A stretch of DNA of 64,000 nt from an uncultured Muribaculaceae bacterium (GCA_964473455.1 CAYYQX010000004.1:27965-91964); one strand, 5' to 3'. Counted from the first letter of the stretch, positions 5,980 through 64,000 are shown. Translations and numbers: made by a program. Notes: a model not told the origin generated them from the letters alone.

Positions 5980-6107
5980 ATCCCTGAGGTTATCAAATTT
6001 TATTAAAAATATAAACTTTATAAAAAAAAGTTTATGTAAAACGATTATGTGTTTACAAAACAAATAAAAAATGATAACATTAATTAAGAATAGAAAGAGG
6101 ATGTAGT

Positions 6108-6641
6108 ATGTTGGACTTTGTTGAACAAAATTACGTTTGGTTTATTGGTGGAGCAATATTCATTGTTTTAATAGTAATAGGGTATATTGCTGAACAAACA
6201 GATTTTGGTCACAAAAAAATCGAAAGAAAAGCAAAACCTGAAGAACCAATCAACAAAAAAGAAGTAATTAAGGAAATAAAAGAAACAAAAGAGTTTGAAA
6301 ATATCAAACTTAATGATGTTGTATATAAAGGAACAGAAGCAAAGGCTGAAGAAGTAAAAAAAGTAGAAGATATTTCAACTATTAAAAATGAACCTGTAAA
6401 ACCTAATATACCATTTAATAATGATAAGAAAACAGAACCAATTAAAAATGATAATAAACAATTTAAAGAAGAAAAAAAGGATATCCCTTTCAATAATAAT
6501 GTTAAGGTAGAAAATAAAGATATTAAAGAAAACAACAAAGATATTGAAAGTGAAGATCAAAGTGTTTGGGAAAAACCAACTGTAGAAGTTGAACCAAAAA
6601 AAGAAGAAATTACTACTGAAGAAGATATTTGGGATTTTTAA
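6108..6641 (+). CDS. Hypothetical membrane-anchored Lys/Glu-rich low-complexity protein
   Basis: N-terminal TM helix (VWFIGGAIFIVLIVIGYI) followed by K/E-rich low complexity with a repeated IPFNN motif. RBS agagga. Confidence 0.45.
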   Translation: MLDFVEQNYVWFIGGAIFIVLIVIGYIAEQTDFGHKKIERKAKPEEPINKKEVIKEIKETKEFENIKLNDVVYKGTEAKAEEVKKVEDISTIKNEPVKPNIPFNNDKKTEPIKNDNKQFKEEKKDIPFNNNVKVENKDIKENNKDIESEDQSVWEKPTVEVEPKKEEITTEEDIWDF

Positions 6642-6718
6642 AAACAATTTTATTGTTTTTTTTTATTTAATGTCTTGTTTTATTTGGTTGGTTATTGTAT
6701 AATTGTCCATGTTGAAAT

Positions 6719-6795
<77 letters not shown>

Positions 6796-6810
6796 TAAAT
6801 TGTAATTAAA

Positions 6811-6833
6811 CACTCCTTAGGAGTGCTTTTTTA
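6811..6833 (+). terminator. Rho-independent terminator after tRNA-Arg
   Basis: cactccttaggagtg hairpin followed by a T-run. Confidence 0.7.
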
Positions 6834-6906
6834 TAAGTAGTATTCATAACTTGACTTCTTTCTTAAAAAGAATTAGAATAAAAAATTAATAGGAGGAAAT
6901 AACGTT

Positions 6907-8148
6907 ATGAATTGGAATCTAAAAAGTAAATTGAAAATTGAAGCTTTTTCCCAAGAAAATTTAACAAGACTAATACAAGATAATAGTCAAATATTAAAAA
7001 AAGAAATCGATTCAACTGCCGAAATTGCAATTGTTGTGAAACCAAATATTGATTGGGATGAATGCCCAAGAGAAGTCATAACTGAATTCTCGGTTCCGGC
7101 ATTTTATATTCCAATAGAGGAATATGAAAATTTTTTTCCGGTGCACAAGGAAGAAATTGAAATGCTCAAAGAACTTTTAAGCATTCAAAAAAATGCCTCT
7201 CAGGATGATCCTAATGAAGCTCATCATTTTGGAACAATTATTTTTATGAAACTTATAACAGCTTATGCAAAATTAGAACAATTAAGTAAAAAACTGGAAA
7301 GTGTACAAGACCCCACTAAATACGGTTTTATTAAACGTGTATTAGATTACGTGGTGAGAGATATTACATCAAAGCTTAAACACACGAAGATTGTATGGGA
7401 ATATAAAGAATGGACTGTCGGTAATGACTTTAAAAGATACGATGAAGCATACTTGTTAGACTTGAATGGTGGGAAAAAATTATTTGATGAAGCCAGCAAA
7501 GAAACTTTAAACAAAGACGTTTTTGCTTTCATTGAAAATTATTTAGAAGAAGCAAAAAAAGAAGAAGAATCGAAACCTATTTATCACGAAACAGTCAAAG
7601 TAGAGAGAAAACCTATTTCATTAATCTTAAGTAGTGATGATATTGCTCGAAACTCAGCAACTGTGTATTATCAAATTATAAAAGAACTAGCAACATTAGA
7701 TGAAGATGACGGAGCTATTCACTTTCAGTCTCTTCAGAGCTTTATTTGGAAAATGGATGAAATGAAAGAAGCTAACCAATTTATTGATGTTGAATTGATT
7801 ATTATTGATTCGGCGCCTCCATATTTCGCACATCCAACTTTGGAACAATTTCAATTGATGAAGAAATATGGAATATATAATTATGGATTAACAAGAAGCG
7901 GATTAGATTATGATAACGGCTGTATTAAAGACATTAAAGGCATTTTAAGGTTAATAAAAGGAGAATATCCAGAATTGCCTTTACCAATAGTAATATCAGA
8001 TGGTTCTGTAAAAAAATCGCTTGAATATTCAGAAAATGAATGTATAGCAATATGTTCGAGTGATTATGACGAACACGACGATAAAGTAATAAAAGCACGT
8101 CAGCATTTATTAAAAAGGCAGCAAGAAAAAGAATGTATGACAATATAA
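6907..8148 (+). CDS. Hypothetical protein (413 aa, no recognisable domain)
   Basis: Long ORF with a strong RBS (aggagga). Sits between tRNA-Arg and dnaG. No TM, no motif I can recognise. Confidence 0.5.
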   Translation: MNWNLKSKLKIEAFSQENLTRLIQDNSQILKKEIDSTAEIAIVVKPNIDWDECPREVITEFSVPAFYIPIEEYENFFPVHKEEIEMLKELLSIQKNASQDDPNEAHHFGTIIFMKLITAYAKLEQLSKKLESVQDPTKYGFIKRVLDYVVRDITSKLKHTKIVWEYKEWTVGNDFKRYDEAYLLDLNGGKKLFDEASKETLNKDVFAFIENYLEEAKKEEESKPIYHETVKVERKPISLILSSDDIARNSATVYYQIIKELATLDEDDGAIHFQSLQSFIWKMDEMKEANQFIDVELIIIDSAPPYFAHPTLEQFQLMKKYGIYNYGLTRSGLDYDNGCIKDIKGILRLIKGEYPELPLPIVISDGSVKKSLEYSENECIAICSSDYDEHDDKVIKARQHLLKRQQEKECMTI

Positions 8149-8207
8149 GAAGAAAAAAAGGAAATTGATCCTTTTTTTTTGTATATATCATTAGGGAGTT
8201 CTATAAT

Positions 8208-9923
8208 ATGGAAATGATTAGTGAACAAAAGTTAAATGAAATAAGAAAAAGCGTTGACATAGTAGACATTATTTCAGAATACGTTCCTCTTACTAAAAGA
8301 GGCAAAAACTTTTTTGGAATATGTCCTTTTCACAATGACAACAATCCTTCAATGAGCGTTTCTAACGAAAAACAAATATATAAGTGTTTTTCTTGTGGCG
8401 CTAGTGGAAACGTTTTTACTTTCTTACAAAATTATGAAAACATAACCTTTATTGAAGCAGTCAAAAAGGTTGCTGACAAAGCTAACATTGATTTAAATAT
8501 AAATACAAAAGTAAAACAAAATAAAAATGAAAAATTATATGAAATTTATAATACATCTTTAAAGCTATATCAAAATAACATTAATACAAAAGAAGGCCTA
8601 GAAGCAAAAGAGTACTTAAAAAAAAGAAAAATAGATGAAGATTTAATCAAAGAATTTGAAATAGGATTATCTTTAAAAAACAATAAGGTATTAACTGAAA
8701 TGTTAATTAAAAAAGGTTTTAGCTATGAGGACATCAATAAAAGTGGACTGGCCGTCAAAAACGATTTTGGTTATTCAGACATTTACTATGATCGAATAAT
8801 GTTTCCTCTGCACGATCTAAACGGCAAAGTAGTAGGTTATAGTGGTAGAGTCTACAACAAAGAAGATCAGTCAAAATACATAAACACAAGAGAAACCGAA
8901 ATATTTAAAAAAGGCGAGCTTTTATATAATTCTCATCGCGCAAAAGACCATATTAGAAAAGAAGACTCTGTTATAATAGTTGAAGGCTTTATGGACGTTA
9001 TAAGGTGTTTCTCTATTGGAGTGAAAAATTGTATTGCGCTTATGGGAACATCAATGACTAAGACACAAGCAAATTTAATTAGAAAATTGAGTAGAAATGT
9101 TATTCTATGTTTTGACGGGGATGCGGCAGGAGAAAAGGCAACAGAAAGCGCTAGTATGGAATTCATCAATATGGGGATAACTCCAAAAATAATTAGATTA
9201 GAAGAGAATTTAGACCCGGATGACTATATTATTAAAAAAGGCACTGAAAAATTTAAAGAAAAATTAACCAATCCTATGACAGTAACAGACTTTAAATTAA
9301 ATTATTATAAAAAAGGAAAAAATCTTAGCCAAGCAGAAGATCAAGCAGCTTATATAAATGAAGTAATCAAATCATTAAATGAAATAGATGATGATATTTT
9401 ACGAGAAATAACTTTAAATAAAATAAGTGAAGAAGCCAAAATAGATATTAATTTGTTGAAAAGTAAAATAGTCAAACAAGAAAAAAAAGAAGAAGTAAAT
9501 AAACAAATAAAACTAAATAAATATCAGAAAGCCGAAATGTTCTTGTTATATTATATGGCCAATAGTAATGAAGTTGCTAAAATGTATGAACACAAACTAG
9601 GTTATTTACCAACAAAAGAATACAGGGAACTTGCTAGAAGTATAGTTAACTTTTATGAAGATAATGCGGATGGAATAATAGCGGATTTAATAAACTACTT
9701 AGATGAGGATTTATTAAAAACATTAAATACGCTTTTAGACTTAAATTTAAAAGACAACTATTCTTTAGAAGAAATAAACGACTATATTGAAACAATTAAT
9801 GAATACAATGTAAAAAATGAAATTCAAAGATTAAGAGGCAAATTAAAAGAAGCAGACTTTCAAGAACAAGAAGAAATATTAAAAAAAATAGTTGAATTAA
9901 TAGGAGTAGAAAATGATAAATGA
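8208..9923 (+). CDS. dnaG: DNA primase
   Basis: CHC2 zinc finger [13 protein letters not shown]...[15 protein letters not shown] region EGFMDV...FDGDAAG. Located upstream of sigA (MMS operon arrangement). Confidence 0.95.
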
Positions 9924-10983
9924 AATCAAAACCTTTGAAGATAGAAAAAAAGAACTAATTAAAATTGGACAAATAAATGGATTTATTACATACGAAGATT
10001 TAGCAAAAAAATTAAAAGGCTTAGAGCTTGATTCAGACGAACTAGATGATTTATATAATTCTCTTAGAGAAAATGATATAGAAATAAAGGCCGAAGAGGA
10101 AGATGACGGGAAACCTTTGGTTTTAGAGGATAATATTCTTACAAAAGATTTAACTATAAATGACCCGGTTAGAATGTATTTGAAAGAAATTGGCCAAATA
10201 AAATTATTAACGACCGAAGAAGAATTAAATTTAGCAGATCGAATAATAAAAGGGGAACAACGCGCAAAAGACATCCTAGCAGAGTCCAACTTAAGACTTG
10301 TTGTTAGTATTGCCAAACGTTATGTTGGAAGAGGAATGCTTTTTCTAGATTTGATTCAAGAAGGAAACATAGGGCTTATGAAAGCCGTTGAAAAATTTGA
10401 TGTTTCTAAAGGATACAAATTTAGTACATATGCCACATGGTGGATAAGACAAGCAATTACAAGAGCTATCGCAGATCAAGCAAGAACAATTAGAGTTCCT
10501 GTTCACATGGTAGAAACTATTAATAAATTAGCTAGAATCCAAAGACAAATGACTTTAGAGTTAAATAGGGAACCAACAGAAGAAGAACTTGCTAAAAAAA
10601 TGGAAACTTCTGTTGAAAAAATACGAGAAATATTTAAAGTTAGTCAAGATCCAGTAAGTTTAGAAACACCAATTGGTGAAGAAGACGACACTCACTTGGC
10701 TGATTTTATTCCTGATGAAAGAAATACTAGCCCGGAAGATTTTACCATAAATGAATTATTAAAGGATGAAATATCAGATGTTTTGTTAACTTTAACTGAA
10801 AGAGAAGAAAAGGTTATTCGTCTTCGTTTTGGTCTAGATGATGGAAAACCTATGACATTAGAAGAGGTAGGACAACTATTTGGGGTTACAAGAGAAAGAA
10901 TTAGGCAAATTGAAGCTAAAGCCCTAAGAAAACTAAAACATCCGTCAAGAAGTAGAAAACTTAAAGATTATTTATCTAGTTAA
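9913..10983 (+). CDS. sigA: RNA polymerase primary sigma factor (sigma-70/SigA)
   Basis: Region 2 [18 protein letters not shown] and [32 protein letters not shown]. Region 4 [15 protein letters not shown]. Overlaps the dnaG end by 11 nt. Confidence 0.95.
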
Positions 10984-10997
10984 ATAATCTTTTTTTT
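10966..10997 (+). terminator. Rho-independent terminator at the sigA 3' end
   Basis: gattattta-tctagt-taaataatc perfect 9-bp stem followed by tttttttt. Confidence 0.75.
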
Positions 10998-11070
10998 GTC
11001 AGTTTCAAAACTATTTTCTTAATTTATAAAATATGTTATACTAATTAAGAATAATAAAGGAGGATTTCTA

Positions 11071-13065
11071 ATGAAAAACATTTTGCGCATATTTTATAAA
11101 ATTATTAGATTTCCCCTATTAGTTATAAGGTTATTTTTCTTAGGAATTTTTAAAACTTTAAAAACATTTAGCGAATTAATTTATAATACTATAAAGTATT
11201 TTATCTATGGAGTAGTTTTTATTTCACACATCCTATATAGTATTATAAGTAAATTTATAAAGTATTTTACTTATGGAATAGTTTACATATTTGTCGTAAT
11301 GTATGTTTTATTTAAAAAAACAGGGCAATATTTATTATATTCTTTGGTTGTACTTAGTTTTATATTTTATAAAATTATTAAATACTTTTTATATGGAACT
11401 TACTTTCCGTTTGTTTTTGTTGTTGAAAAAAAACGCATAATTAGTGATAAAAACAGAGCTAAAAAAGAAAAGTTAAGAATAGAAAAAATAAAAGCTAAAA
11501 TAGAAAAGAAAGCTCAAAGACAAAGACAAGAAGAAGCAAGAGTAATAGAAAAAACAAGAATTTTAGATAAGAAAAAAGAGCTTAGAGACCAAGAGAAAAA
11601 AAGAAAACAGAGTCTTGAATTTATTAATGAAAATGTTTCAATAGAAGACATAGGCTTTAAATATAGATTGAAACAAGCATCTAATGTCTTTAATAACTTA
11701 CCTGAAAAGATCAAAAAGAAGTTAAAAAGCTGGTATGAAAATTTATCTTTCATCAAAGCTAGAAAGAACCGTTTTGATATAGAAAGACAAGAACTTCTAA
11801 TTAATTTTGAAGGTGAAGACGCTGTTAAGAGTACTAGAAAAATCCCATACGAGTATGTTGTTAAAACAAGTGATGGAAAAATCATTAGAGGGCATTATGA
11901 AGCTTTTTCAAAAGTCGAAGTTCACTCGTTTTTACTAAGTGAAAACTATGTTGTTTATAGTATAAAAACTTCACGTTGGATTCAGATAAAATATGGCAGA
12001 AAAGCAAATTCGAGAATGAAATTTAAAGTAAAAGATTTAGTTTTCTTTTTGACACAATTGTCAACATATATTAAATCGGGTATAACATTAGTTGAAGCTC
12101 TTAGAATTTTATCAAGACAATATAAAAATAAGCAATATAAGCAAGCAATTAGAAACATTATTTATGAGCTTACAATGGGTGAGAATTTTAGTAATGCGAT
12201 GGAAAAACAAGGAATGGCTTTTCCAAAACTACTTATCAACATGGTAAAAGCGTCTGAAATGACAGGGGAACTTCCAGAAGCTCTTGATGATATGGCTGAT
12301 TATTATACAGAGGCGGATAAAACAAGAAAACAAATGATAACAGCTATGACATACCCAGTTATAATTTTTGTTTTAGCTACTGCAGTTATCGTCTTTGTTC
12401 TATTATATGTAGTTCCAAAATTTACTGATATTTATTCTTCAATGGAAGGAACACAAATACCTGACTTTACAAAATTTGTAATGAATGCTAGTGCGTTTAT
12501 TAAAGAAAACGTTTTAAAAATACTTATAGTATTAGTAGTTTTATTAATAGCTGCTAGATATTTATACATATATATAAAATCATTTAAGACTATGATTCAA
12601 TGGATATTAATGCATATTCCGGTATTTGGAAATGTTATCATTTATAATGAAGTAACAATGTTTACTAAAACTTTTGCTTCTCTTTTAAAACACAACGTAT
12701 TTATTACTGAAAGTATGGAAATATTAACAAAGCTAACAAGCAATGAAATTTACAAAATGATAATATTAGATACTATTTCCAACTTAGCTCACGGAGATAA
12801 ATTGTCTTTATCATTTAAAAATCATTGGGCTTTTCCAATTCCAGCGTATGAAATGCTAGTAACGGGGGAAAAGACAGGAGAGTTGCCTGAAATGATGGCA
12901 AAAGTATCTTCATATTACCAGGAGTTACACAAAAACTCTGTGACTAGAATAAAAACTTTTGTTGAGCCAATATTAATTATATTTTTAACAGTTGTTGTTG
13001 GAGCAATTATTCTAGCTATAGTATTGCCGATGTTTAGCTTATATCAACAAGTTCAAGGCATGTAG
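11071..13065 (+). CDS. Type II secretion / type IV pilus platform protein (GspF/PilC/ComGB family) with an unusual ~300-aa N-terminal membrane plus coiled-coil extension
   Basis: The C-terminal ~350 aa carry two T2SSF repeats (FKVKDLVFFLTQLSTYIKSGITLVEALRIL...; ...LLKHNVFITESMEILTK...). The N-terminal region has 4 TM helices with a thrice-repeated IKYF(I/L)YG motif, then a K/E/R-rich coiled coil. Confidence 0.7.
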   Translation: MKNILRIFYKIIRFPLLVIRLFFLGIFKTLKTFSELIYNTIKYFIYGVVFISHILYSIISKFIKYFTYGIVYIFVVMYVLFKKTGQYLLYSLVVLSFIFYKIIKYFLYGTYFPFVFVVEKKRIISDKNRAKKEKLRIEKIKAKIEKKAQRQRQEEARVIEKTRILDKKKELRDQEKKRKQSLEFINENVSIEDIGFKYRLKQASNVFNNLPEKIKKKLKSWYENLSFIKARKNRFDIERQELLINFEGEDAVKSTRKIPYEYVVKTSDGKIIRGHYEAFSKVEVHSFLLSENYVVYSIKTSRWIQIKYGRKANSRMKFKVKDLVFFLTQLSTYIKSGITLVEALRILSRQYKNKQYKQAIRNIIYELTMGENFSNAMEKQGMAFPKLLINMVKASEMTGELPEALDDMADYYTEADKTRKQMITAMTYPVIIFVLATAVIVFVLLYVVPKFTDIYSSMEGTQIPDFTKFVMNASAFIKENVLKILIVLVVLLIAARYLYIYIKSFKTMIQWILMHIPVFGNVIIYNEVTMFTKTFASLLKHNVFITESMEILTKLTSNEIYKMIILDTISNLAHGDKLSLSFKNHWAFPIPAYEMLVTGEKTGELPEMMAKVSSYYQELHKNSVTRIKTFVEPILIIFLTVVVGAIILAIVLPMFSLYQQVQGM

Positions 13066-13079
13066 TAAGGGGATAGAAA

Positions 13080-13847
13080 ATGAATACGATATATACGATT
13101 TACTTTTTTATACTTGGGATTGTTTTTGGTTCATTCTTCAATGTTGTAGGCTATAGGCTTCCAAAAGAACAGTCTATCGTAAATCCTCCATCTCACTGCC
13201 CAAAGTGTAATCATAAATTGAAATTTTTGGAATTAATTCCAATTTTTTCTTTTTTAATTCAAGGTGGAAAGTGTAGAAATTGTAAACAAAAGATATCTTG
13301 GTTTTATACGATATTTGAACTTTTAACAGGTGTTTTATTTGCTTTAGCCTATCTAAGATTTGGAATATCTAATGAGTTAATCACAGCGCTTGTCTTTATT
13401 TCTATGTCCATAATAATTATAATAAGCGACTATCAAACATTTATTATTCCTGATGAGATTTTGGTTTTTGCAGGATGTTTTTTCTTAACATTTATTCTAG
13501 TTAATTCAGGTGTTGATCAATTTTTAATTTCTTTATTATCGGGAATTATATCTTTTCTTATAATGTATGCTTTAAAGAAAGTAGGAGACTTGTCTTTTAA
13601 AAAAGAATCTATGGGTGGTGGGGACTTAAAACTAATGTTTATCTTTGGTATTGTTTTTGGTTACCAGCTTTCTATTGTAGTCTTGTTTTTGGCTTCCATA
13701 ATTGGTCTTCCAATATCTATTATTATATTAAAAATTAAAAAAACGAATATTATTCCATTTGGTCCGTTTTTATGTATTGCTGCGCTTATTTTGTTGTTTT
13801 TCAACTTTAATTTTAACGATTTAATTAACTACCTTTTTTACTCTTAA
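13080..13847 (+). CDS. Prepilin peptidase (A24 family, PilD/ComC)
   Basis: N-terminal zinc tetracysteine CPKC...CRNC. Multi-TM. Aspartate-containing motifs (IIISDYQTFIIPDE; GGGDLKLM). Sits directly downstream of the PilC-like gene. Confidence 0.85.
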   Translation: MNTIYTIYFFILGIVFGSFFNVVGYRLPKEQSIVNPPSHCPKCNHKLKFLELIPIFSFLIQGGKCRNCKQKISWFYTIFELLTGVLFALAYLRFGISNELITALVFISMSIIIIISDYQTFIIPDEILVFAGCFFLTFILVNSGVDQFLISLLSGIISFLIMYALKKVGDLSFKKESMGGGDLKLMFIFGIVFGYQLSIVVLFLASIIGLPISIIILKIKKTNIIPFGPFLCIAALILLFFNFNFNDLINYLFYS

Positions 13848-13908: not shown

Positions 13909-13985
13909 GTCCTTGTAACTCAGTTGGATAGAGTATCCCCCTCCTAAGGGGAAAGTCGGCAGTTCAAATCCGCCCAAGGACACCA
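13909..13985 (+). tRNA. tRNA-Arg (anticodon CCT)
   Basis: Acceptor gtccttg/caaggac, D-arm, anticodon stem tcccc/gggga with loop ctcctaa (CCT), T-loop ttcaaat, 3' CCA encoded. Confidence 0.85.
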
Positions 13986-37721: not shown

Positions 37722-38210
37722 ATGAAAAAATTTACAATTGTAAGTCAAGGTTACGATAAAGATGAAGTAAATTCTTTTCTTGACGAACTTATTGTTAGAT
37801 TTGAAAAAATGATTAAAGAGATAAACGAAAAAAACGATATGATTTCCACTTTAAGAATGGACCTTTCTAAAAACGGATTTAGTCCTGAATTAGAAAGAGA
37901 AAACAAAAACCTAAAAGATAAAGTTGAACAATATAAAGCAATGGAAGAAACATTAAATAAAGCCATATTAATGGCTCAAAAAACTTCTGATCAAATGAGA
38001 TTAACTGCTCATAATGAAGCAGAAGTAATAACTACAGAAGCTAGAAGTAATGCGAACAGAATCGTAAATGATGCTTTAATGAAAGCAGATAAAGTTCAAG
38101 TAGAAGCAGATACATTAAGAAGAAACTTAATTGTATTTAAAAGAAGACTAAGAAGTGTTATTGAAACACAATTAGATCTTGTAGATGATATTGAAAAAAT
38201 AGAATTATAA
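37722..38210 (+). CDS. divIVA: Cell division protein DivIVA
   Basis: N-terminal GYDKDEVNSFLDEL lipid-binding/DivIVA motif followed by coiled coil. Position sepF-divIVA-ileS as in Bacilli. Confidence 0.85.
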   Translation: MKKFTIVSQGYDKDEVNSFLDELIVRFEKMIKEINEKNDMISTLRMDLSKNGFSPELERENKNLKDKVEQYKAMEETLNKAILMAQKTSDQMRLTAHNEAEVITTEARSNANRIVNDALMKADKVQVEADTLRRNLIVFKRRLRSVIETQLDLVDDIEKIEL

Positions 38211-38235
38211 CAAATGACGAAGACAAGTATATTAA

Positions 38236-38416
38236 TAGTTATTAAGAGAGTTAGTGTTTGGTGAAAACTAATTAACAATTAATATACAAATCACTTCTGA
38301 TGTTTTTTGCCAAAACAAAAACGTGTAGCTTGCGTTAAAAGTATGGAGGTAATAGACATTACAAAATAAGGTGGTACCGCGAAGTTTCGCCCTTATATGT
38401 GATGTTTTTATTTTAG
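38236..38416 (+). promoter_or_regulatory. T-box riboswitch leader (Ile specifier) of ileS
   Basis: Stem I with AGAGA (38245-38249) and distal gguGAAAACUAAu. Candidate specifier AUC-A at 38290-38293. Conserved T-box sequence AAUAAGGUGGUACCGCG (38366-38381). Hairpin plus U-rich tract before the ileS RBS. Confidence 0.8.
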
Positions 38417-38437: not shown

Positions 38438-41400
38438 ATGTTTAAAATGTTAAGCAGTCAAAAAGTAAATGAAGTAGAAGAATCTATCTTAAAAAAATGG
38501 GAAGCAGAAGATATACTAAATAAAACAATTGAAAACCGTAGTAAAGATAAAAACTTTGTTTTTTATGATGGACCTGCAACAGCCAATGGTTTTCCTGGCC
38601 TACACCACATGATGGCTAAATTTTTAAAAGATACTTTTTGTAAATATAAAACAATGCAAGGGTATCGAGTTTTAAGAAAAGTGGGTTGGGATACTCATGG
38701 TCTTCCAGTAGAAGTAGAAGTAGAAAAAAAACTAGGTTTTAACAGTAAAAATGAAATTGAAAAATATGGTATTAAAGAGTTCAATGAAGAATGTAGGAAA
38801 ATAGTTTGGCAAAATGAAGAAGCTTTTTCTAATTTAACAAAAAAAATGGGACAATTTATTGATCTTGATAATCCATATGTAACGTATGACAATAATTATA
38901 TTGAAACAGAATGGTATATACTAAAAAGATTTTTTGAAGAAGGCTTGTTTTATGAAGGCGTCAAAATCCTTCCATATTGTCCTAGATGTGAGACAGGACT
39001 AGCTAGCCACGAAGTAGCCCAAGGCTATAAAGAAATAGCTGTAGAAACAGTCATTGTTCCAATGAAGAAAAAAGATGAAGATGTTTATTTTTTGGTTTGG
39101 ACTACAACTCCTTGGACTCTTCTTGCCAATGTTGCAATTTGCGTTAATCCAAATGAAGAATATGTTAAAGTGGAAAGTAAAGGGCTAAAGTTCATTCTAG
39201 CTGAAAAACTAACTAAAACTGTTTTAGGAGAAGAATATACAGTCTTAGAAAAGTACAAAGGAAAAGAACTTGAAAACATTGAATACGAACAACTATTACC
39301 TTTCTTAAAAGTTGATAGAAAAGCTTTTTATGTGACATGTGATTCTTACGTTACAATGGAAGATGGAACAGGAATAGTTCATATAGCTCCCTCTTTTGGT
39401 GAGGATGATTCTAAGGTTGCTAAAAAATATAATTTACCTTATTTAAATCCAGTAGGCGAAGATGGAAAATACACTGAAGGGCCTTTTAAAGGTATGCTTG
39501 TATTTGATGCGGATGTTGAAGTTATAAAATACTTAAGAGAAAATAACAAACTATTTAAAAAGCAGAGAATGATGCATAATTATCCACATTGTTGGAGATG
39601 TGGGACCCCTTTAATATATTATTCAAAACCAAGTAAATATTTAGAAGTAACAAAAATAAAAGACAAAATTATTGAAGCCAACAATACAGTTAATTGGTAT
39701 CCTGCTTATGTTGGAGAAAAAAGATTTGGGAATTGGTTAGAAAACCTTAATGATTGGGCAATATCTAGAAATAGATACTGGGGAACACCACTTCCTCTTT
39801 GGACTTGTTCTTGTGGTCATAAAGAAATGATTGGTTCAAGGCAAGAACTAATAGAAAAAGCAATTGAAAAAATAGATGATACAATCGAATTACATAGGCC
39901 TTATGTTGATGAAGTCCATTTGAGATGTTCTAAATGTGGTGGGGTTATGACTAGAACAACAGATGTAATAGACTGTTGGTTTGATTCGGGTTCGATGCCT
40001 TTTAGTCAGTATCACTATCCTTTTGAAAACAAAAAATTATTTGAAAATCAATTTCCAGCTGACTTCATCTGTGAAGGAATAGATCAAACAAGAGGATGGT
40101 TTTACTCTCTTCTTGTTATAGCTGTGTTTTTAAAAGGAGTTAGTCCATATAAAAACGTTTTAGTAAATGATTTATTGTTAGACAGTGAAGGAAAAAAGAT
40201 GTCTAAGAGTAAAGGAAATATAGTTGAACCTTTCACAACTATGAAAGAATACGGTGCGGATACAGTAAGATGGTATTTACCATATGTTTCTCCTGTTTGG
40301 ACACCTTTAAAGTTTGACTTAGAAGGATTAAAAGAAGTGTATTCAAAGTTCTTTAATCCGCTTAAAAATTCCTATAATTTTTTTGCTATATACGCTAATA
40401 CAGATGAAATAAACATTGATGAATGTAATTGTAGTTATGATGAACTAGAAGAAATAGATAAATGGATGATTTCAAAATACAATAGACTAGTAAAATATGT
40501 AACAGAAGCATATGAGGAATATGATTTGAATAAAGTTGTTCGCGCAGTAACAGACTTTACTTCAGAAGATTTATCTAACTGGTATATTAGGAGAAATAGA
40601 AAAAGATTTTGGGGAAGTACTTTAGACAACAGTAAAAAAGCCGTTTATAAAACAACATATGATGTGCTAGTTGGCATCTCAAAATTAATCGCTCCAATCG
40701 CGCCTTTTATATCAGAAGAAATATATATGAATTTAACAAATGAAGTTTCAGTTCATCTTGCTGACTTTCCAAAATACGATGAAAAGTTAATAGACAATCA
40801 TATTGAAAAGAGAATGGACTTAGTTAGAAACTTAATCAGTATTGGTAGAAAAGCCAGAGAAGACTTGAAAATCAAAGTAAGGCAGCCTCTTTCCCTAGCT
40901 ATATTAGATGGTAATAACAAGGGTTTGATTGAAGACTTAGTGCCTCTAATAAAAGAAGAATTAAATCTTAAAGAAGTTGTTTTTGAACACGACTTAGGAA
41001 AATATATGAACTTTAAAGTTGTTCCAAACTTTAAGGTTGTTGGTAAAGAATTAGGCTCTAAAGTAAAAGCTTTTACCGAAATCTTAAATCAAATAGACTT
41101 AATTAGTATTAATAAACTTAATAATAATGAAACTATTACTGTTGATTTAGAAGGTGAGGTCAATGTTACAAAAGAAATGGTTGAAATTAGAATATCTTCT
41201 AAAGAGGGCTTTAATGTTGGAATGGAAGGCAATAACTTTTTAATTTTAAATACAGACTTAACAGAAGAGCTAATCCTTGAAGGAAATGCCAGAGAAATCG
41301 TTTCAAAAGTTCAACAAATGAGGAAAAGTAAAGACTTTAATGTCATAGATAGAATAAATATTTTTTATAGGAGTGACGTTGAAATAGATAAAACTTTTAT

Positions 41401-41527
41401 GCAGTTTGAAAATTATATTAAAGAAGAAACTTTAGCTCTTAATATAATTAAAAAAGAACAGTTAAGTCTTATGGAAGACATTAATGGGCATGAAGTTTAT
41501 TTAGATGTTGAAAAAGTAGAAAAATAA
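38438..41527 (+). CDS. ileS: Isoleucine--tRNA ligase
   Basis: 1029 aa. Class I motifs (PGLHHM HIGH-variant; KMSKSKGN). Editing domain. C-terminal zinc-less type-2-like extension. Terminator hairpin gtagaaaa...ttttctac at the stop. Confidence 0.95.
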   Translation: MFKMLSSQKVNEVEESILKKWEAEDILNKTIENRSKDKNFVFYDGPATANGFPGLHHMMAKFLKDTFCKYKTMQGYRVLRKVGWDTHGLPVEVEVEKKLGFNSKNEIEKYGIKEFNEECRKIVWQNEEAFSNLTKKMGQFIDLDNPYVTYDNNYIETEWYILKRFFEEGLFYEGVKILPYCPRCETGLASHEVAQGYKEIAVETVIVPMKKKDEDVYFLVWTTTPWTLLANVAICVNPNEEYVKVESKGLKFILAEKLTKTVLGEEYTVLEKYKGKELENIEYEQLLPFLKVDRKAFYVTCDSYVTMEDGTGIVHIAPSFGEDDSKVAKKYNLPYLNPVGEDGKYTEGPFKGMLVFDADVEVIKYLRENNKLFKKQRMMHNYPHCWRCGTPLIYYSKPSKYLEVTKIKDKIIEANNTVNWYPAYVGEKRFGNWLENLNDWAISRNRYWGTPLPLWTCSCGHKEMIGSRQELIEKAIEKIDDTIELHRPYVDEVHLRCSKCGGVMTRTTDVIDCWFDSGSMPFSQYHYPFENKKLFENQFPADFICEGIDQTRGWFYSLLVIAVFLKGVSPYKNVLVNDLLLDSEGKKMSKSKGNIVEPFTTMKEYGADTVRWYLPYVSPVWTPLKFDLEGLKEVYSKFFNPLKNSYNFFAIYANTDEINIDECNCSYDELEEIDKWMISKYNRLVKYVTEAYEEYDLNKVVRAVTDFTSEDLSNWYIRRNRKRFWGSTLDNSKKAVYKTTYDVLVGISKLIAPIAPFISEEIYMNLTNEVSVHLADFPKYDEKLIDNHIEKRMDLVRNLISIGRKAREDLKIKVRQPLSLAILDGNNKGLIEDLVPLIKEELNLKEVVFEHDLGKYMNFKVVPNFKVVGKELGSKVKAFTEILNQIDLISINKLNNNETITVDLEGEVNVTKEMVEIRISSKEGFNVGMEGNNFLILNTDLTEELILEGNAREIVSKVQQMRKSKDFNVIDRINIFYRSDVEIDKTFMQFENYIKEETLALNIIKKEQLSLMEDINGHEVYLDVEKVEK

Positions 41528-60025: not shown

Positions 60026-60214
60026 TTAACAAATAAATTAAGTTGTGATATAATGTAAGTAGAAGTAATTTATATATAATTTAATATTTAAAAAATTAAT
60101 AAACAAAGAGGTTGTAAATTTATATATATAAATTATAAAACAAAAAACATTTCAATCATTTTTACAAAAGCGTTGTATTTTAAGGCTAAAACACTTATAT
60201 CTATAAGTGTTTTT
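60026..60214 (+). promoter_or_regulatory. Promoter plus hairpin/T-run defining a ~150-nt leader or candidate sRNA upstream of the nrd operon
   Basis: TTAACA(60026-60031)-17-TATAAT(60049-60054) with an upstream TG (extended -10). No ORF follows. A 9-bp perfect palindrome ACACTTATA-tc-TATAAGTGT (about 60187-60206) is followed by TTTTTTTT. A related AAAACACTTGTATGT repeats at about 60284-60298. Confidence 0.4.
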
Positions 60215-60344
60215 TTTACACAAAAATGTTTTTAAATTAGAAAAGTAAAAAACAAAATGTAAAAATTAGTAAAAAAAAACATAAAACACTTGTATGTTTT
60301 TTTGTGGTGTGATATCCTTTACTTAAGGTAGGAGGGGAAACACA

Positions 60345-62195
60345 ATGGAAGAATTAATAGTTGTTAAAAGAAGTGGTCAAAGAGTAAAATTTGATGGTAT
60401 TAAGATTGCTATCGCAATTAAAAAAGCCTTCGATAGTGTTAACCGTAATTACCAAGAAGAGGAAATCAATAAAGTTTATGAAAGCACTTTAAAATACATT
60501 ACTTTAGTATATAAAGATAGAAAGACAATCAACGTTGAAGATATTCAAGATATGATTGAAACTATCTTAAAAAACGAAAAGTATATAGAAGTATATAAAG
60601 AGTTTTCTGAATATAGAAAAAAAAGAGCTGAATCAAGAAAAGCTTTCAGTGAAAAAAAAGAACACAAATTTGTAAAAGTTATTGAGCAAACAAACAGTAT
60701 GAACAAAAGAATGGAAACTCCATATAAAATGCTTAAAAAGTTTGGAGAAAATATTTCTCTTGAATACACCAAATCTTATATTATTGATAGTAAATATGTT
60801 AGAGCTCACGATGAAGGAAGAATTTTTATTCACAACTTTTCTTATTTTAATTTAGGATTTCTCGGTTCAACGCATATAAAATTAGAAAATTGTCTTCAAA
60901 ATAATAACTGTTTCTTTGATATACTATTTAAATTAATAAATGCTAAAAAAGAAATCAAAGGAGAAATTGCCATTGATAATATTGACGTTTTATTAAACGA
61001 ACATCTTTTAGAACTTTTCAAACAAAAATTTATTGACAAACTAAAGAATTATCTCCAAATAAATGATTATTTAGAACTTGTTAGATTTGCCGATATAGTT
61101 CAAAGAATAAAAGATCAAAAAGAAATAAATCTAGTAAATTGTAATGATATTTTGCCAAACGAAAGAGTAAAAAAAATATTTGATAGTTCTTACAACGAAG
61201 CTTTAAACGAAATAAATGAAATGTTAAAGCAAAATTTACAAAACATTATAGAGTTTTTAAACAAAGAAGATATCTTTACCATTACAACAGGAGAAATAAT
61301 TAACTCAAAAATAAATGAAGTATTATTAGATATTATAATAGAAAATAAAAAGTATGAAAACATATTTGTTATATATAAAGTAACTAAAAAAACCCCTGAT
61401 GTCATATATAATAAGATAGCTAATATCATAAATAGTAAGAAAAATATTAAGTTACACTTTATTGAAAACGATGTTATTAGTGAATTCTTTGCTAACGGAC
61501 AAAGAATAATTGATGCTAGTCCAACAGGAAGAAGTAATATTGGAAATATCTCAGTTAACTTGCCAAGAATAATTATGAAGTATAAAAAAGTAGAATTTTA
61601 TAAAAAACTAGATAACTTAATTAACTTTGCTGTCAACAATTTGGAATTTATCTTTGAACAAATAGGAGATAAAATAAAAGATAATTATCAAATACTATTT
61701 GATGGAACAATCTTAAATGATGAAAAATTAGAAAAAAAGCAAAAGATTAGAAAAGTAATTAAAACAGGGACTTTAAATATTAACTTAGTTGGTTTAAAAG
61801 AAAGTGCCAATATGTTAAATGAAAAAGAACTAGAAAGTACTATTTTTAAAATATTAAAACAAGTCAAAGTAAGACTAAATGAAGAGTCAAAAAAAAGTAA
61901 ATTGAATTATACCTTTAGTGCAATCAACAGTGAAGCGTCAACTTACTTTATCGATATTGACAAAACTGTTTATGGTACGTTAGATAAAATCACCAAAAAA
62001 GAAGCTTATGAAAATATTTGCTTTGTAAAATCAATTAAAGAAGCTGAAGTAGTAAGTGAGTACCAAAAAATGCTTACCGGTGGTAGTGAACTAGAAATGA
62101 TAATAGATGCTCCTTCCAAAGAAAAGATAATAGAAACGATTAAAAAACTAATTGAGAAAAACATTATTTTTGCTAATCTAAAGGTGACCAAATGA
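60345..62195 (+). CDS. NrdD-like protein with an N-terminal ATP-cone but without glycyl-radical and zinc-ribbon motifs (putative inactive class III RNR paralogue)
   Basis: ATP-cone VVKRSGQRVKFDGIKIAIAIKKAF. YVRAHDEGRIFIHNFSYFNLGFLGSTHI aligns with the bona fide NrdD downstream (IANAHRNCDIHIHDLSMLTGYCAGWSL), with the Cys replaced. The C-terminus ...YENICFVKSIK...ANLKVTK lacks both RVxGY and CxxC...CxxC. Strong RBS aggagggg. The stop overlaps nrdG. Confidence 0.6.
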   Translation: MEELIVVKRSGQRVKFDGIKIAIAIKKAFDSVNRNYQEEEINKVYESTLKYITLVYKDRKTINVEDIQDMIETILKNEKYIEVYKEFSEYRKKRAESRKAFSEKKEHKFVKVIEQTNSMNKRMETPYKMLKKFGENISLEYTKSYIIDSKYVRAHDEGRIFIHNFSYFNLGFLGSTHIKLENCLQNNNCFFDILFKLINAKKEIKGEIAIDNIDVLLNEHLLELFKQKFIDKLKNYLQINDYLELVRFADIVQRIKDQKEINLVNCNDILPNERVKKIFDSSYNEALNEINEMLKQNLQNIIEFLNKEDIFTITTGEIINSKINEVLLDIIIENKKYENIFVIYKVTKKTPDVIYNKIANIINSKKNIKLHFIENDVISEFFANGQRIIDASPTGRSNIGNISVNLPRIIMKYKKVEFYKKLDNLINFAVNNLEFIFEQIGDKIKDNYQILFDGTILNDEKLEKKQKIRKVIKTGTLNINLVGLKESANMLNEKELESTIFKILKQVKVRLNEESKKSKLNYTFSAINSEASTYFIDIDKTVYGTLDKITKKEAYENICFVKSIKEAEVVSEYQKMLTGGSELEMIIDAPSKEKIIETIKKLIEKNIIFANLKVTK

Positions 62196-62869
62196 TAATA
62201 AGTGGTATGCAAAAATTAACTCTTCTAGATTATCCAACCAAAACCGCTTGTATGATTTTTACGGGAGGTTGTAACTTTAACTGTTCTTATTGCCACAATT
62301 CATCTTTAATTAAAAACGAACAAACAAGTTTTATTAAAGAAGAAGAGGTATTAGAGTATCTAGAAAAAAGAAAAAAAGTATTAGATGGTCTTGTTATATC
62401 TGGTGGTGAACCAACAATTCAAGTCGGTCTAAAAAACTTTATTACTAAAGTAAAACAAATAGGTTTAAAAGTTAAACTAGATACTAATGGATATAACCCT
62501 AAAGTATTACAAGATTTAATTAACAACAACTTGTTAGATTATATAGCTATGGATATAAAAGGAGATTTTTTAGACTACGATGATATTTGTGGGAAAAAAA
62601 TAGATTCAAAAAAAATCCTTGAAAGTATAGAAATAATAAAAAAATCAAATATCGATCATGAATTTAGAACTACAATAATTAAGCAGTATCACACTATAGA
62701 TAAGATAAAAAAAATAAAGGAGTTAGTCAAAGATTCCAAATATTATCTTCAGAATTTTAAAATATCTAAAGAAGTTTTAAATAAAAATTTAACCCCATTT
62801 AGTGAAGAAGAATTAAATTTAATAAAAAAAGAAATAGAAGGCCTTAACATAATAGTTAGGGGATTATAG
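62192..62869 (+). CDS. nrdG: Anaerobic ribonucleoside-triphosphate reductase activating protein (radical SAM)
   Basis: FTGGCNFNCSYCHN radical-SAM cluster motif, GLVISGGEP SAM-binding motif. 225 aa. Confidence 0.85.
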   Translation: MIISGMQKLTLLDYPTKTACMIFTGGCNFNCSYCHNSSLIKNEQTSFIKEEEVLEYLEKRKKVLDGLVISGGEPTIQVGLKNFITKVKQIGLKVKLDTNGYNPKVLQDLINNNLLDYIAMDIKGDFLDYDDICGKKIDSKKILESIEIIKKSNIDHEFRTTIIKQYHTIDKIKKIKELVKDSKYYLQNFKISKEVLNKNLTPFSEEELNLIKKEIEGLNIIVRGL

Positions 62870-62878
62870 GAGAAGAAG

Positions 62879-64000
62879 ATGTACAAAGTAAGAAAAAGAG
62901 ATGGAAAAATAGTTCCGTTTGATATTAAGAGAATAAGTGAAGCAATAATAAAGGGTTTTGAAGCCGAAGAAAAAAAATACGATACAGATGTCATTGATTT
63001 TTTAGCTTTAAAAGTAACGGCTGATTTTGAACCAAAGATCAAAGACAATATTGTCGATGTTGAAGATATTCAAGATTCAGTTGAAGCAACTTTAATAAAG
63101 GGTGGATACGCCGAAGTTGCTAAAGCTTATATTCTATATCGAAGACTACACGATAAAATGCGTAATATGAAATCAACTATTTTAGATTATAAAGAACTAG
63201 TAAACAGTTATGTTAATGTAACAGACTGGCGAGTAAAAGAAAATTCAACAGTGACTTATTCTGTTGGAGGACTTATTCTTTCCAATTCAGGTGCCATAAC
63301 AGCTAATTATTGGTTAAGTGAAATATATGATGATGAGATAGCTAACGCTCATAGAAATTGTGATATTCATATCCACGATTTATCAATGTTAACAGGATAT
63401 TGTGCTGGGTGGAGTTTAAAGCAATTGATTAAAGAAGGTTTAGGTGGAGTTAGTGGCAAGATTACTTCAAGCCCTGCTAGACATTTAGGAACTTTATGTA
63501 ATCAAATGGTAAATTTCTTAGGTATTATGCAAAACGAATGGGCCGGAGCGCAAGCATTTTCTTCTTTCGATACTTATCTAGCGCCTTTTGTAAAAAAAGA
63601 CAACATGACATATAAAGAAGTAAAACAAGCTATTCAGTCTTTTGTTTATGGAGTAAACACACCAAGTCGTTGGGGAACACAACCTCCTTTTACAAATATT
63701 ACTTTAGATTGGACAGTTCCAAACGATTTAGCTGAACTTAACTGCTTAGTTGGTAGTGAGGAAATGGACTTTAAATACAAAGATTGTCAAAAAGAAATGG
63801 ACATGGTAAATAAAGCCTTTATCGATATTATGACTGAAGGAGACGCCAACGGTAGAGGATTTGAATATCCTATTCCAACATACTCTATAACTAAAGACTT
63901 TAAATTTGATGATACAGAAAATAATAAGATGTTATTTGAAATGACAGCGAAATATGGTACTCCTTATTTTTCAAACTATATTAACTCTGATATGGAGCCA
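62879..64000 (+). CDS. nrdD: Anaerobic ribonucleoside-triphosphate reductase NrdD (class III), N-terminal ~374 aa; continues beyond the window
   Basis: ATP-cone MYKVRKRDGKIVPFDIKRISEAI. Conserved NrdD segments CDIHIHDL, LTGYCAGWSL, NFLGIMQNEWAGAQAFSSFDTYLAPF and TQPPFTNITLDW. RBS aggaga. The ORF runs off the 3' end. Confidence 0.85.
   Translation, partial: MYKVRKRDGKIVPFDIKRISEAIIKGFEAEEKKYDTDVIDFLALKVTADFEPKIKDNIVDVEDIQDSVEATLIKGGYAEVAKAYILYRRLHDKMRNMKSTILDYKELVNSYVNVTDWRVKENSTVTYSVGGLILSNSGAITANYWLSEIYDDEIANAHRNCDIHIHDLSMLTGYCAGWSLKQLIKEGLGGVSGKITSSPARHLGTLCNQMVNFLGIMQNEWAGAQAFSSFDTYLAPFVKKDNMTYKEVKQAIQSFVYGVNTPSRWGTQPPFTNITLDWTVPNDLAELNCLVGSEEMDFKYKDCQKEMDMVNKAFIDIMTEGDANGRGFEYPIPTYSITKDFKFDDTENNKMLFEMTAKYGTPYFSNYINSDMEP

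Follow-up and report, generated by a model that had tools for sequence, protein, structure and literature searches.

The anaerobic ribonucleotide reductase (RNR) operon that closes a 64,000-nucleotide stretch of DNA from an uncultured Muribaculaceae bacterium (assembly GCA_964473455.1, contig CAYYQX010000004.1, positions 27965-91964; this whole stretch is hereafter the window) begins with a gene for a relative of NrdD, the catalytic subunit of class III RNR, which we call pseudo-NrdD. As judged from its sequence, this protein is a pseudoenzyme that cannot reduce nucleotides; apart from the fold and an N-terminal ATP-cone, none of the features of a functional NrdD was found in it. It is nevertheless under purifying selection rather than decaying, and is always encoded directly upstream of the genes for the activase NrdG and a canonical NrdD. 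We propose that pseudo-NrdD acts in trans as an ATP/dATP-sensing regulatory accessory subunit of the neighbouring NrdD and NrdG, a reading for which belief and doubt seem to us evenly balanced.

Loss of catalytic elements

The functional elements of NrdD were defined from the Prevotella copri enzyme (PcNrdD; PMC11226230) and mapped onto pseudo-NrdD by direct alignment, through an active relative (locus L031) used as a bridge, by profile-profile alignment with hhalign against the true NrdDs of the operons, and in a 40-sequence MAFFT alignment. A preliminary description of the locus had recognized an open reading frame (ORF) of 616 codons whose product has an ATP-cone at its N-terminus and homology to NrdD, and this holds (Pfam ATP-cone, 48 bits; Pfam NRDD, PF13597, E = 2e-26). 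The best stretch of the NRDD match ends at profile position 500 of 562, however, and scores against the NCBIfam NrdD equivalogs all lie far under their cut-offs (151.9 against 764 bits for NF005497 and 84.7 against 326 bits for TIGR02487).

The glycyl-radical domain (PcNrdD residues 676-739) is wholly absent, the C-terminus of pseudo-NrdD falling roughly where that domain would start, and no RxxGY glycyl loop occurs in the family alignment. The sequence ICFV had been read as occupying the position of the radical glycine; this was a misalignment, since KEAYENICFVK aligns with DRDYYTNSNHVPVYYK inside the PcNrdD barrel, and the domain is absent rather than mutated. The zinc ribbon, with its four Cys/His ligands, is missing from every member of the family in the motif table. 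The thiyl cysteine of the finger loop has also gone: YMGCRTRV of the active relatives is aligned with FFANGQRI by MAFFT and with KNIKL by hhalign, and neither alignment places a cysteine at that position. Hence the loss of the thiyl cysteine, the glycyl motif and the zinc ribbon, as claimed beforehand, is borne out by alignment to NrdD models, to PcNrdD and among the 40 sequences.

That list was sound as far as it went and incomplete. The NxN flap over the active site and the specificity-site beta-hairpin are deleted (the latter segment is KNGFSTGHGYLRTPNSIGS in L031), the beta-A cysteine is replaced, the arginine and glutamine of loop 2 are gone, and the ATPAE phosphate loop is lost, reading AIN-SE. 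The conserved block of the form AH..I.IH that had been described as NrdD-like is really the HxHD triphosphate motif, and its first histidine has been replaced by phenylalanine or tyrosine, so that the motif reads FIHN in the window protein and (F/Y)xH(N/D/Q) across the family. Searches of the window found neither a free-standing glycyl-radical peptide nor a further ATP-cone protein such as NrdR.

Retained ATP-cone and fold

The ATP-cone matches PF03477 over residues 5-95 with 48.2 bits, against a gathering cut-off of 25.8. The nucleotide ligands of the PcNrdD cone, K7, R8, Y83, R87 and R91 (PMC11226230), correspond to K8, R9, Y90, R94 and R98 of pseudo-NrdD, and all five are invariant in 31 family sequences whose overall identity is only about 45%. 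The connector helix, HKFVK.IE, is also kept. AlphaFold2 predicts a confident fold for the whole protein (mean predicted local distance difference test, pLDDT, 88.5; predicted template modelling score, pTM, 0.86), whose best Foldseek match in the PDB is PcNrdD (8P23; E = 4e-27, TM score 0.65-0.76), followed by the NrdDs of S. thermophilus (StNrdD), T4 and T. maritima. Almost all of the invariant barrel residues occupy inherited structural positions that are present in active relatives too, and no new motif was seen in the barrel.

Conservation and selection

Pseudo-NrdD belongs to a sizeable family. Leaving aside the query itself, a word-indexed search returned 120 clusters of 601-660 residues at 41-48% identity, all with both Pfam domains, while an exhaustive profile search of 1.84 billion representatives returned about 60 clusters (at 50% identity) of 600-675 residues that align from end to end. 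One cluster at 90% identity contains 524 members of 636-639 residues. In public annotation the family goes under the name 'anaerobic ribonucleoside-triphosphate reductase'.

Ratios of nonsynonymous to synonymous substitution (dN/dS) were estimated by the Nei-Gojobori method between related loci, using the same genome pairs for all genes compared. They were 0.16-0.23 for pseudo-NrdD, 0.04-0.10 for the true NrdD, 0.08-0.39 for NrdG and 0.07-0.16 for the thioredoxin-reductase-like (TrxR-like) protein encoded at the end of the operon. Constraint is unevenly distributed within pseudo-NrdD, the cone and linker giving 0.03-0.14 and the barrel 0.18-0.27; column conservation is highest in the cone (0.74), in the linker (a mean of 0.80) and at residues 461-480 (0.88). 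Across the same genomes, pseudo-NrdDs are 42-48% identical, against 81-86% for the neighbouring NrdDs. No frameshifted copy occurs among the approximately 37 loci at which pseudo-nrdD, nrdG and nrdD follow in this order, and the shorter variant at L024 (564 residues) is still an open frame. The view that this is not a decaying pseudogene, put forward in the preliminary description, is thus upheld: pseudo-NrdD is under purifying selection.

Organization of the operon

Every locus of sufficient length, whether reached through pseudo-NrdD, through the true NrdD or through NrdG, has the same order: pseudo-NrdD (564-670 residues), nrdG (225-244 residues), an MCCR-type nrdD with a C-terminal glutaredoxin-like domain (771-825 residues) and the TrxR-like gene (Table 1 gives the features of the window). 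About 33 loci found via pseudo-NrdD share this order, all four genes being complete in 23; so do both loci found via the true NrdD (L088 and L089) and both found via NrdG homologues at 54-56% identity (L090 and L091). Where contigs continue, L091 is the sole locus without the terminal TrxR-like gene. The order had been called unusual, a judgement made against the E. coli-type operon, and its recurrence in related taxa is now documented at about 37 loci. Pseudo-NrdD always lies immediately 5' of nrdG-nrdD and abuts or overlaps nrdG; its stop and the start of nrdG share nucleotides in the window, L002 and L006, and are no more than 3 nt apart in L004. Flanking genes vary from genome to genome (cotE is a neighbour at one locus) and the cassette alone is conserved. 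Record titles of these loci refer to uncultured metagenome-assembled genomes (MAGs) from gut and rumen, labelled Bacilli, Mycoplasma/Tenericutes, Erysipelotrichaceae and Clostridium sp. CAG:914.

Several low-GC, Bacilli-type nrd contigs (L016, L019, L021, L034, L052, L055 and L067) are filed as 'uncultured Muribaculaceae' (Bacteroidota) MAGs, and the nrd contig L053 is filed under a 'Rickettsiales' label. These names are probably binning or labelling errors.

In the window, the strong ribosome-binding site (RBS) and the overlap of pseudo-NrdD with nrdG were correctly reported beforehand, the shared nucleotides being ATGA at 62192-62195. The two genes that follow are, as had been stated, nrdG and a canonical nrdD. 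The portion of nrdD inside the window (373 residues) matches NF006126 with 581 bits, and is 100% identical over its length to P0267, a full-length NrdD of 774 residues from the same genome (1129.6 bits, cut-off 548). In P0267 the finger loop reads MCCRL and the glycyl motif SRITGYY, a zinc ribbon is present, and a glutaredoxin-like domain with CPNC stands at the C-terminus; with this complete set of motifs the C-terminus of the true NrdD, which lies outside the window, is canonical. The true NrdD also carries an ATP-cone of its own (Pfam, 79 bits). Its glutaredoxin-like fusion occupies residues ~695-774 of P0267, has a CPxC motif and gives a weak match to TIGR02196. At L002, nrdD (10561..12888) is followed by the TrxR-like gene (12890..13786), whose product of about 300 residues scores 298.7 bits against TIGR01292, just below the cut-off of 343. 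From these domain assignments, the operon appears to supply an MCCR-type class III RNR together with a reducing system of its own.

Table 1. Coordinates of the pseudo-NrdD operon and its upstream region, counted from the first nucleotide of the window.
Feature	Position	Strand	Description
Upstream palindrome	60188..60213	.	AAAACACTTATA-tc-TATAAGTGTTTT, then a T run; 12-nt arms, 100% complementary; operator-like, resembles NrdR box (ACAC...GTGT)
Second palindrome	60273..60303	.	AAAAAAACATAAAA-cac-TTGTATGTTTTTTT; 14-nt arms, 93% complementary; ~87 bp 3' of the first; overlaps likely -35 hexamer TTGTAT
Shine-Dalgarno sequence	60329..60336	+	AGGAGGGG; 8 nt 5' of the pseudo-NrdD ATG
Pseudo-NrdD	60345..62195	+	616 aa, ATG start; ATP-cone and predicted catalytically dead NrdD barrel, without glycyl-radical domain
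ATP-cone of pseudo-NrdD	60357..60629	+	aa 5-95; from Pfam and PcNrdD mapping
Linker/connector of pseudo-NrdD	60630..60704	+	aa 96-120, SRKAFS.K..HKFVK.IE; most conserved segment (mean conservation 0.80); the NxN flap expected next is deleted
Degenerate alpha/beta barrel of pseudo-NrdD	60705..62192	+	aa 121-616; stops where the glycyl-radical domain would begin
nrdG	62192..62869	+	NrdG2-type radical-SAM activase, 225 aa; TIGR02495 225.6 bits, cut-off 131
True nrdD, MCCR-type	62879..64000 (runs off window)	+	first 373 codons; own ATP-cone, C-terminal glutaredoxin-like domain in the full protein

Origin and relatives

The preliminary description had called pseudo-NrdD an NrdD paralogue and copy. 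It is not a recent duplicate of the neighbouring NrdD, and its sequence affinities indicate descent from an MGCR-type (formate-type) NrdD and not from the MCCR-type neighbour, which has a different type of activase. Pseudo-NrdD is about 23% identical to the true NrdD by profile-profile alignment and about 30% identical to active MGCR relatives. Among related Bacilli MAGs, of which Clostridium sp. CAG:1000 is one, such relatives were found at 37 species-level loci, at which an MGCR-type NrdD of 757-809 residues is the only NrdD found; these enzymes keep all catalytic motifs and score 362-480 bits with the pseudo-NrdD profile, against 104-140 with the true-NrdD profile. They are followed by an activase of TIGR02491 type, against TIGR02495 type in the window. 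No assembly among the 80 loci kept for comparison is common to the two groups, and both have the same unusual promoter layout. In a neighbour-joining tree, in which long-branch effects are possible, pseudo-NrdDs and other radical-less forms are sister to the active MGCR enzymes.

The simplest history would be that a resident MGCR-type nrdD remained the operon's first gene and lost its catalytic function, while an nrdG2-nrdD(MCCR)-glutaredoxin-trxB set assumed catalysis and the old activase was lost. The proportion of G and C at third codon positions (GC3) is 0.17-0.21 across all operon genes and their neighbours. A recent horizontal transfer of the operon was considered and set aside, there being no compositional signal for it, and the same uniformity of GC3 indicates that the rearrangements in the history of the operon are not recent.

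The active MGCR NrdDs are themselves unusual in being split. In 33 of the 37 related loci (L027-L075) the large chain of 757-809 residues ends just past the zinc ribbon, and a separate ORF of about 50-60 codons with its own RBS bears the glycyl-radical motif F.RIRRITGYLVGT; the TIGR02491-type nrdG comes next. L031 (Clostridium sp. CAG:1000) provides an example, with the large chain at 5986..8259 and the small ORF at 8282..8437. The small ORF matches the last 36 positions of PRK07111 (E = 2e-12), and the fused form was seen only in L044, L067 and L077. A bacterial NrdD divided at this site was not found described in the searchable literature. Comparison of these sequences suggests that the ancestor of pseudo-NrdD probably had the split layout.

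The nrdD of L076 (5986..8216; a Mollicutes MAG) is broken into ORFs of 161 and 577 residues by a frameshift or deletion near the HxHD region, which could be an assembly error or a genuine disruption. It was considered as a disrupted copy of the pseudo-NrdD family and rejected, since the frameshifted gene of this MAG really encodes a split NrdD of the active type. At L081 (5932..7962), a 676-residue NrdD-like ORF has the finger-loop cysteine (PMGCRSFL) and HFHD and lacks the glycyl-radical domain; this enzyme may be split as well, with the next ORF (7981..8421) encoding its C-terminal part.

Further radical-less, cone-bearing relatives of NrdD, 630-736 residues long, all stop at NRDD profile position ~502-506 and differ in the extent to which motifs have been lost. 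Three from Clostridia MAGs (L078, 5995..8052; L080, 5999..7615; L087, 5995..7887) keep the cone, lack the finger-loop cysteine and the glycyl-radical domain, and adjoin active nrdD-nrdG genes in other gene orders. The Clostridia copies group with different active enzymes in the tree, which suggests repeated origins. At L055, such a gene sits after an Abi-like gene and a gene for an HtrA-like protease.

Upstream region

The region 5' of the operon has a conserved layout, in which AATGT(T)8 is followed by an AAAATGTAAA element and this by (A)8CATTGAC. About 85 bp separate the two outer elements, which are inverted copies. AATGT(T)8 is the counterpart of the first palindrome of the window and stands at the same relative site 5' of nearly all operon loci and of the active-NrdD loci; (A)8CATTGAC, in which TTGAC is the -35 element, is the counterpart of the second. 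These positions are kept 5' of the operon in L002-L071 and 5' of the active nrdD in L026-L067. In L021 the outer elements are full 16-bp palindromes, ACATTGTTAACAATGT and ACATTGCAATTAATGT, which recall NrdR boxes and depart from the ACAC-N8-GTGT consensus; no consistent matches to canonical NrdR boxes (ACAC-N8-GTGT) were found 5' of 23 operons. (A)8CATTG occurs four times in the window against 2.7 expected, which is not significant.

Proposed function and alternatives

The regulatory role proposed for pseudo-NrdD is drawn from the linkage of the operon, the invariant ligands of the ATP-cone and analogy. In both StNrdD (PMC12662201) and PcNrdD (PMC11226230), dATP causes dimerization or tetramerization through the cones, which restrains the connector. 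As the operon's first cistron, pseudo-NrdD would be expressed under the nrd promoter, and ATP or dATP would bind to its cone. Association or oligomerization through the cones might then be driven by dATP, as it is in active NrdDs. With the dead barrel as a dimeric scaffold, the free cone and connector could join, or compete in, cone assemblies, and pseudo-NrdD would thereby act in trans on NrdD/NrdG, tuning activity or activation to the ratio of dATP to ATP.

Several observations weigh against this proposal. The true NrdD already has its own ATP-cone, so the need for a further sensor is not evident. The post-connector helix of pseudo-NrdD, EYTKSYILDNKYVRAHEEG, resembles that of MGCR NrdDs and not that of its MCCR partner, and so favours homodimers over a barrel heterodimer. 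The barrel is constrained too (dN/dS ~0.2), for a reason that the model does not specify. Two orphan genes (L051, 5905..8115; L055, 5989..7968) encode cone-bearing proteins that lack the finger-loop cysteine and the glycyl-radical domain and adjoin no nrd gene, so linkage to an nrd operon is not universal for such radical-less proteins. Finally, the complex of pseudo-NrdD with NrdD or NrdG is hypothetical, the linkage of the operon being indirect evidence for it.

A wider form of the proposal, which we put forward tentatively and with more doubt than conviction, is that radical-less, cone-bearing, dead-barrel NrdDs are a hitherto unrecognized class of trans allosteric subunits of anaerobic RNR that arose repeatedly in Firmicutes and couple the cellular dATP/ATP ratio to the activity or activation of a separate, active NrdD. 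The origins, under this same tentative scheme, would comprise the Bacilli MAGs, at least two events in Clostridia, and the orphan copies; in the lineage of the window a formate-type NrdD would have been split, lost its glycyl peptide and been repurposed when a thioredoxin-type NrdD cassette assumed catalysis.

Pseudo-NrdD might instead be a structural helper with no part in nucleotide sensing, either a scaffold or chaperone for NrdG or NrdD, stabilizing the activase for instance, or an ORF retained mainly for the translational coupling of nrdG, which we regard as unlikely. In the window, L002, L004 and L006 its stop overlaps or abuts the start of nrdG, and its barrel is under purifying selection, both of which are in keeping with such a role; a precedent exists in yeast, where the class Ia beta subunit has a dead paralogue, Rnr4, that acts as a partner in folding and assembly. 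A pure coupling ORF is ruled out by constraint at the amino-acid level, however, and the finding that the cone and linker are the most constrained parts of the protein, with all ligands invariant, is hard to explain without nucleotide binding.

The protein could also have been neofunctionalized for a role outside ribonucleotide reduction, as an adenine-nucleotide sensor elsewhere or with a new, non-radical barrel activity. The orphans far from nrd genes and the several origins of radical-less, cone-bearing relatives speak for this reading, which we likewise consider improbable: the window's own family is strictly linked to nrdG-nrdD, its nrd-type promoter is common to the active nrdD of related MAGs, and the invariant residues of the barrel are nearly all inherited structural ones, with no new motif among them.

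In the PcNrdD dimer one monomer is active at a time (PMC11226230), and this half-of-sites activity, together with co-expression of the two genes, raises the prospect of a barrel heterodimer in which pseudo-NrdD would be the inactive partner of the true NrdD and half-of-sites behaviour would be fixed. We give this distinctly little weight, given that the two proteins are of different subclasses at ~23% identity, that the post-connector helix is MGCR-like, and that the specificity-site hairpin and loop 2, which form the interface and communicate across it, are deleted.

The disappearance of all catalytic motifs and an evolution much faster than that of NrdD might be expected of a functionless relic; this is very improbable and is contradicted by the data, since dN/dS is low, about 37 loci and over 100 protein clusters have intact ORFs, the AlphaFold2 fold is confident and the RBS is strong. 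Least credible, and likewise contradicted by the data, is continued catalysis with a glycyl radical supplied by a separate peptide, for which the small glycyl ORF of ~50 residues in 33 of 37 related loci offers a model, because the thiyl and beta-A cysteines, NxN flap, HxHD, ATPAE loop and zinc ribbon are all missing, the matching TIGR02491-type activase is absent, and the window encodes no glycyl peptide, the overlap of the pseudo-NrdD stop with nrdG leaving no room for a small ORF.

Other features of the window

Elsewhere the window contains a T-box leader (107.8 bits) at 38205-38397, 5' of an ORF of 1029 codons (38438..41527), and tRNA genes at 6719-6792 and 13909-13982. Such features are ordinary for a low-GC (28.7%) Bacilli chromosome.

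Relation to known systems and significance

Compared with the MGCR (formate) NrdDs, represented by P. copri NrdD (8P23) and by L031, L044 and L077, pseudo-NrdD is without the glycyl-radical domain, the zinc ribbon, both cysteines, the flap, a full HxHD, the ATPAE loop, the specificity-site hairpin and loop 2, while its relatives in the related MAGs have the same type of promoter architecture. Yeast Rnr4 (Y4), the nearest to pseudo-NrdD in its logic, is an inactive paralogue of Rnr2, the radical-generating subunit of class Ia RNR, with which it forms an experimentally proven heterodimer. Like pseudo-NrdD, it is a dead RNR-subunit paralogue under selection, and it works with an active RNR; unlike pseudo-NrdD, it belongs to another class and subunit (a ferritin-like beta) and has no ATP-cone, and its complex is proven whereas that of pseudo-NrdD is inferred. 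NrdR is an ATP-cone transcriptional repressor of nrd operons, about 150 residues long, with an N-terminal zinc-ribbon DNA-binding domain. The two share the joining of an ATP-cone to a non-catalytic output, which for NrdR is control of ribonucleotide reduction; pseudo-NrdD differs in its length of 616 residues, in that its cone starts at residue 5, in the lack of a zinc ribbon, and in carrying a dead barrel of 500 residues. GrcA/YfiD is a free-standing glycyl-radical protein of pyruvate formate-lyase. It demonstrates, as do the split NrdDs, that the glycyl-radical module is separable from the barrel; in those systems, however, the barrel has kept its catalytic function and receives the module in trans, whereas pseudo-NrdD has neither the module nor the catalytic residues.

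No description of radical-less NrdD relatives was found in the searchable full-text literature, including papers on RNR phylogeny and on insertions, which is absence there rather than proof. To our knowledge there is no earlier catalytic-subunit pseudoenzyme among RNRs, and pseudo-NrdD would be the first. The annotation of pseudo-NrdDs as reductases inflates RNR counts in metagenomic surveys. The split NrdDs are also of mechanistic interest for recognition by the activase, in that the glycyl-radical loop of an RNR would be able to function as a polypeptide of its own. Structures have only lately revealed how class III RNR is controlled allosterically, for PcNrdD in 2024 and for StNrdD in 2025, and this control has been thought to operate in cis, through the enzyme's own cone and connector. 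If the role that we propose for pseudo-NrdD is true, it would mean a trans-acting layer of control over the deoxynucleoside triphosphate pool in abundant uncultured Bacilli of the gut and rumen.

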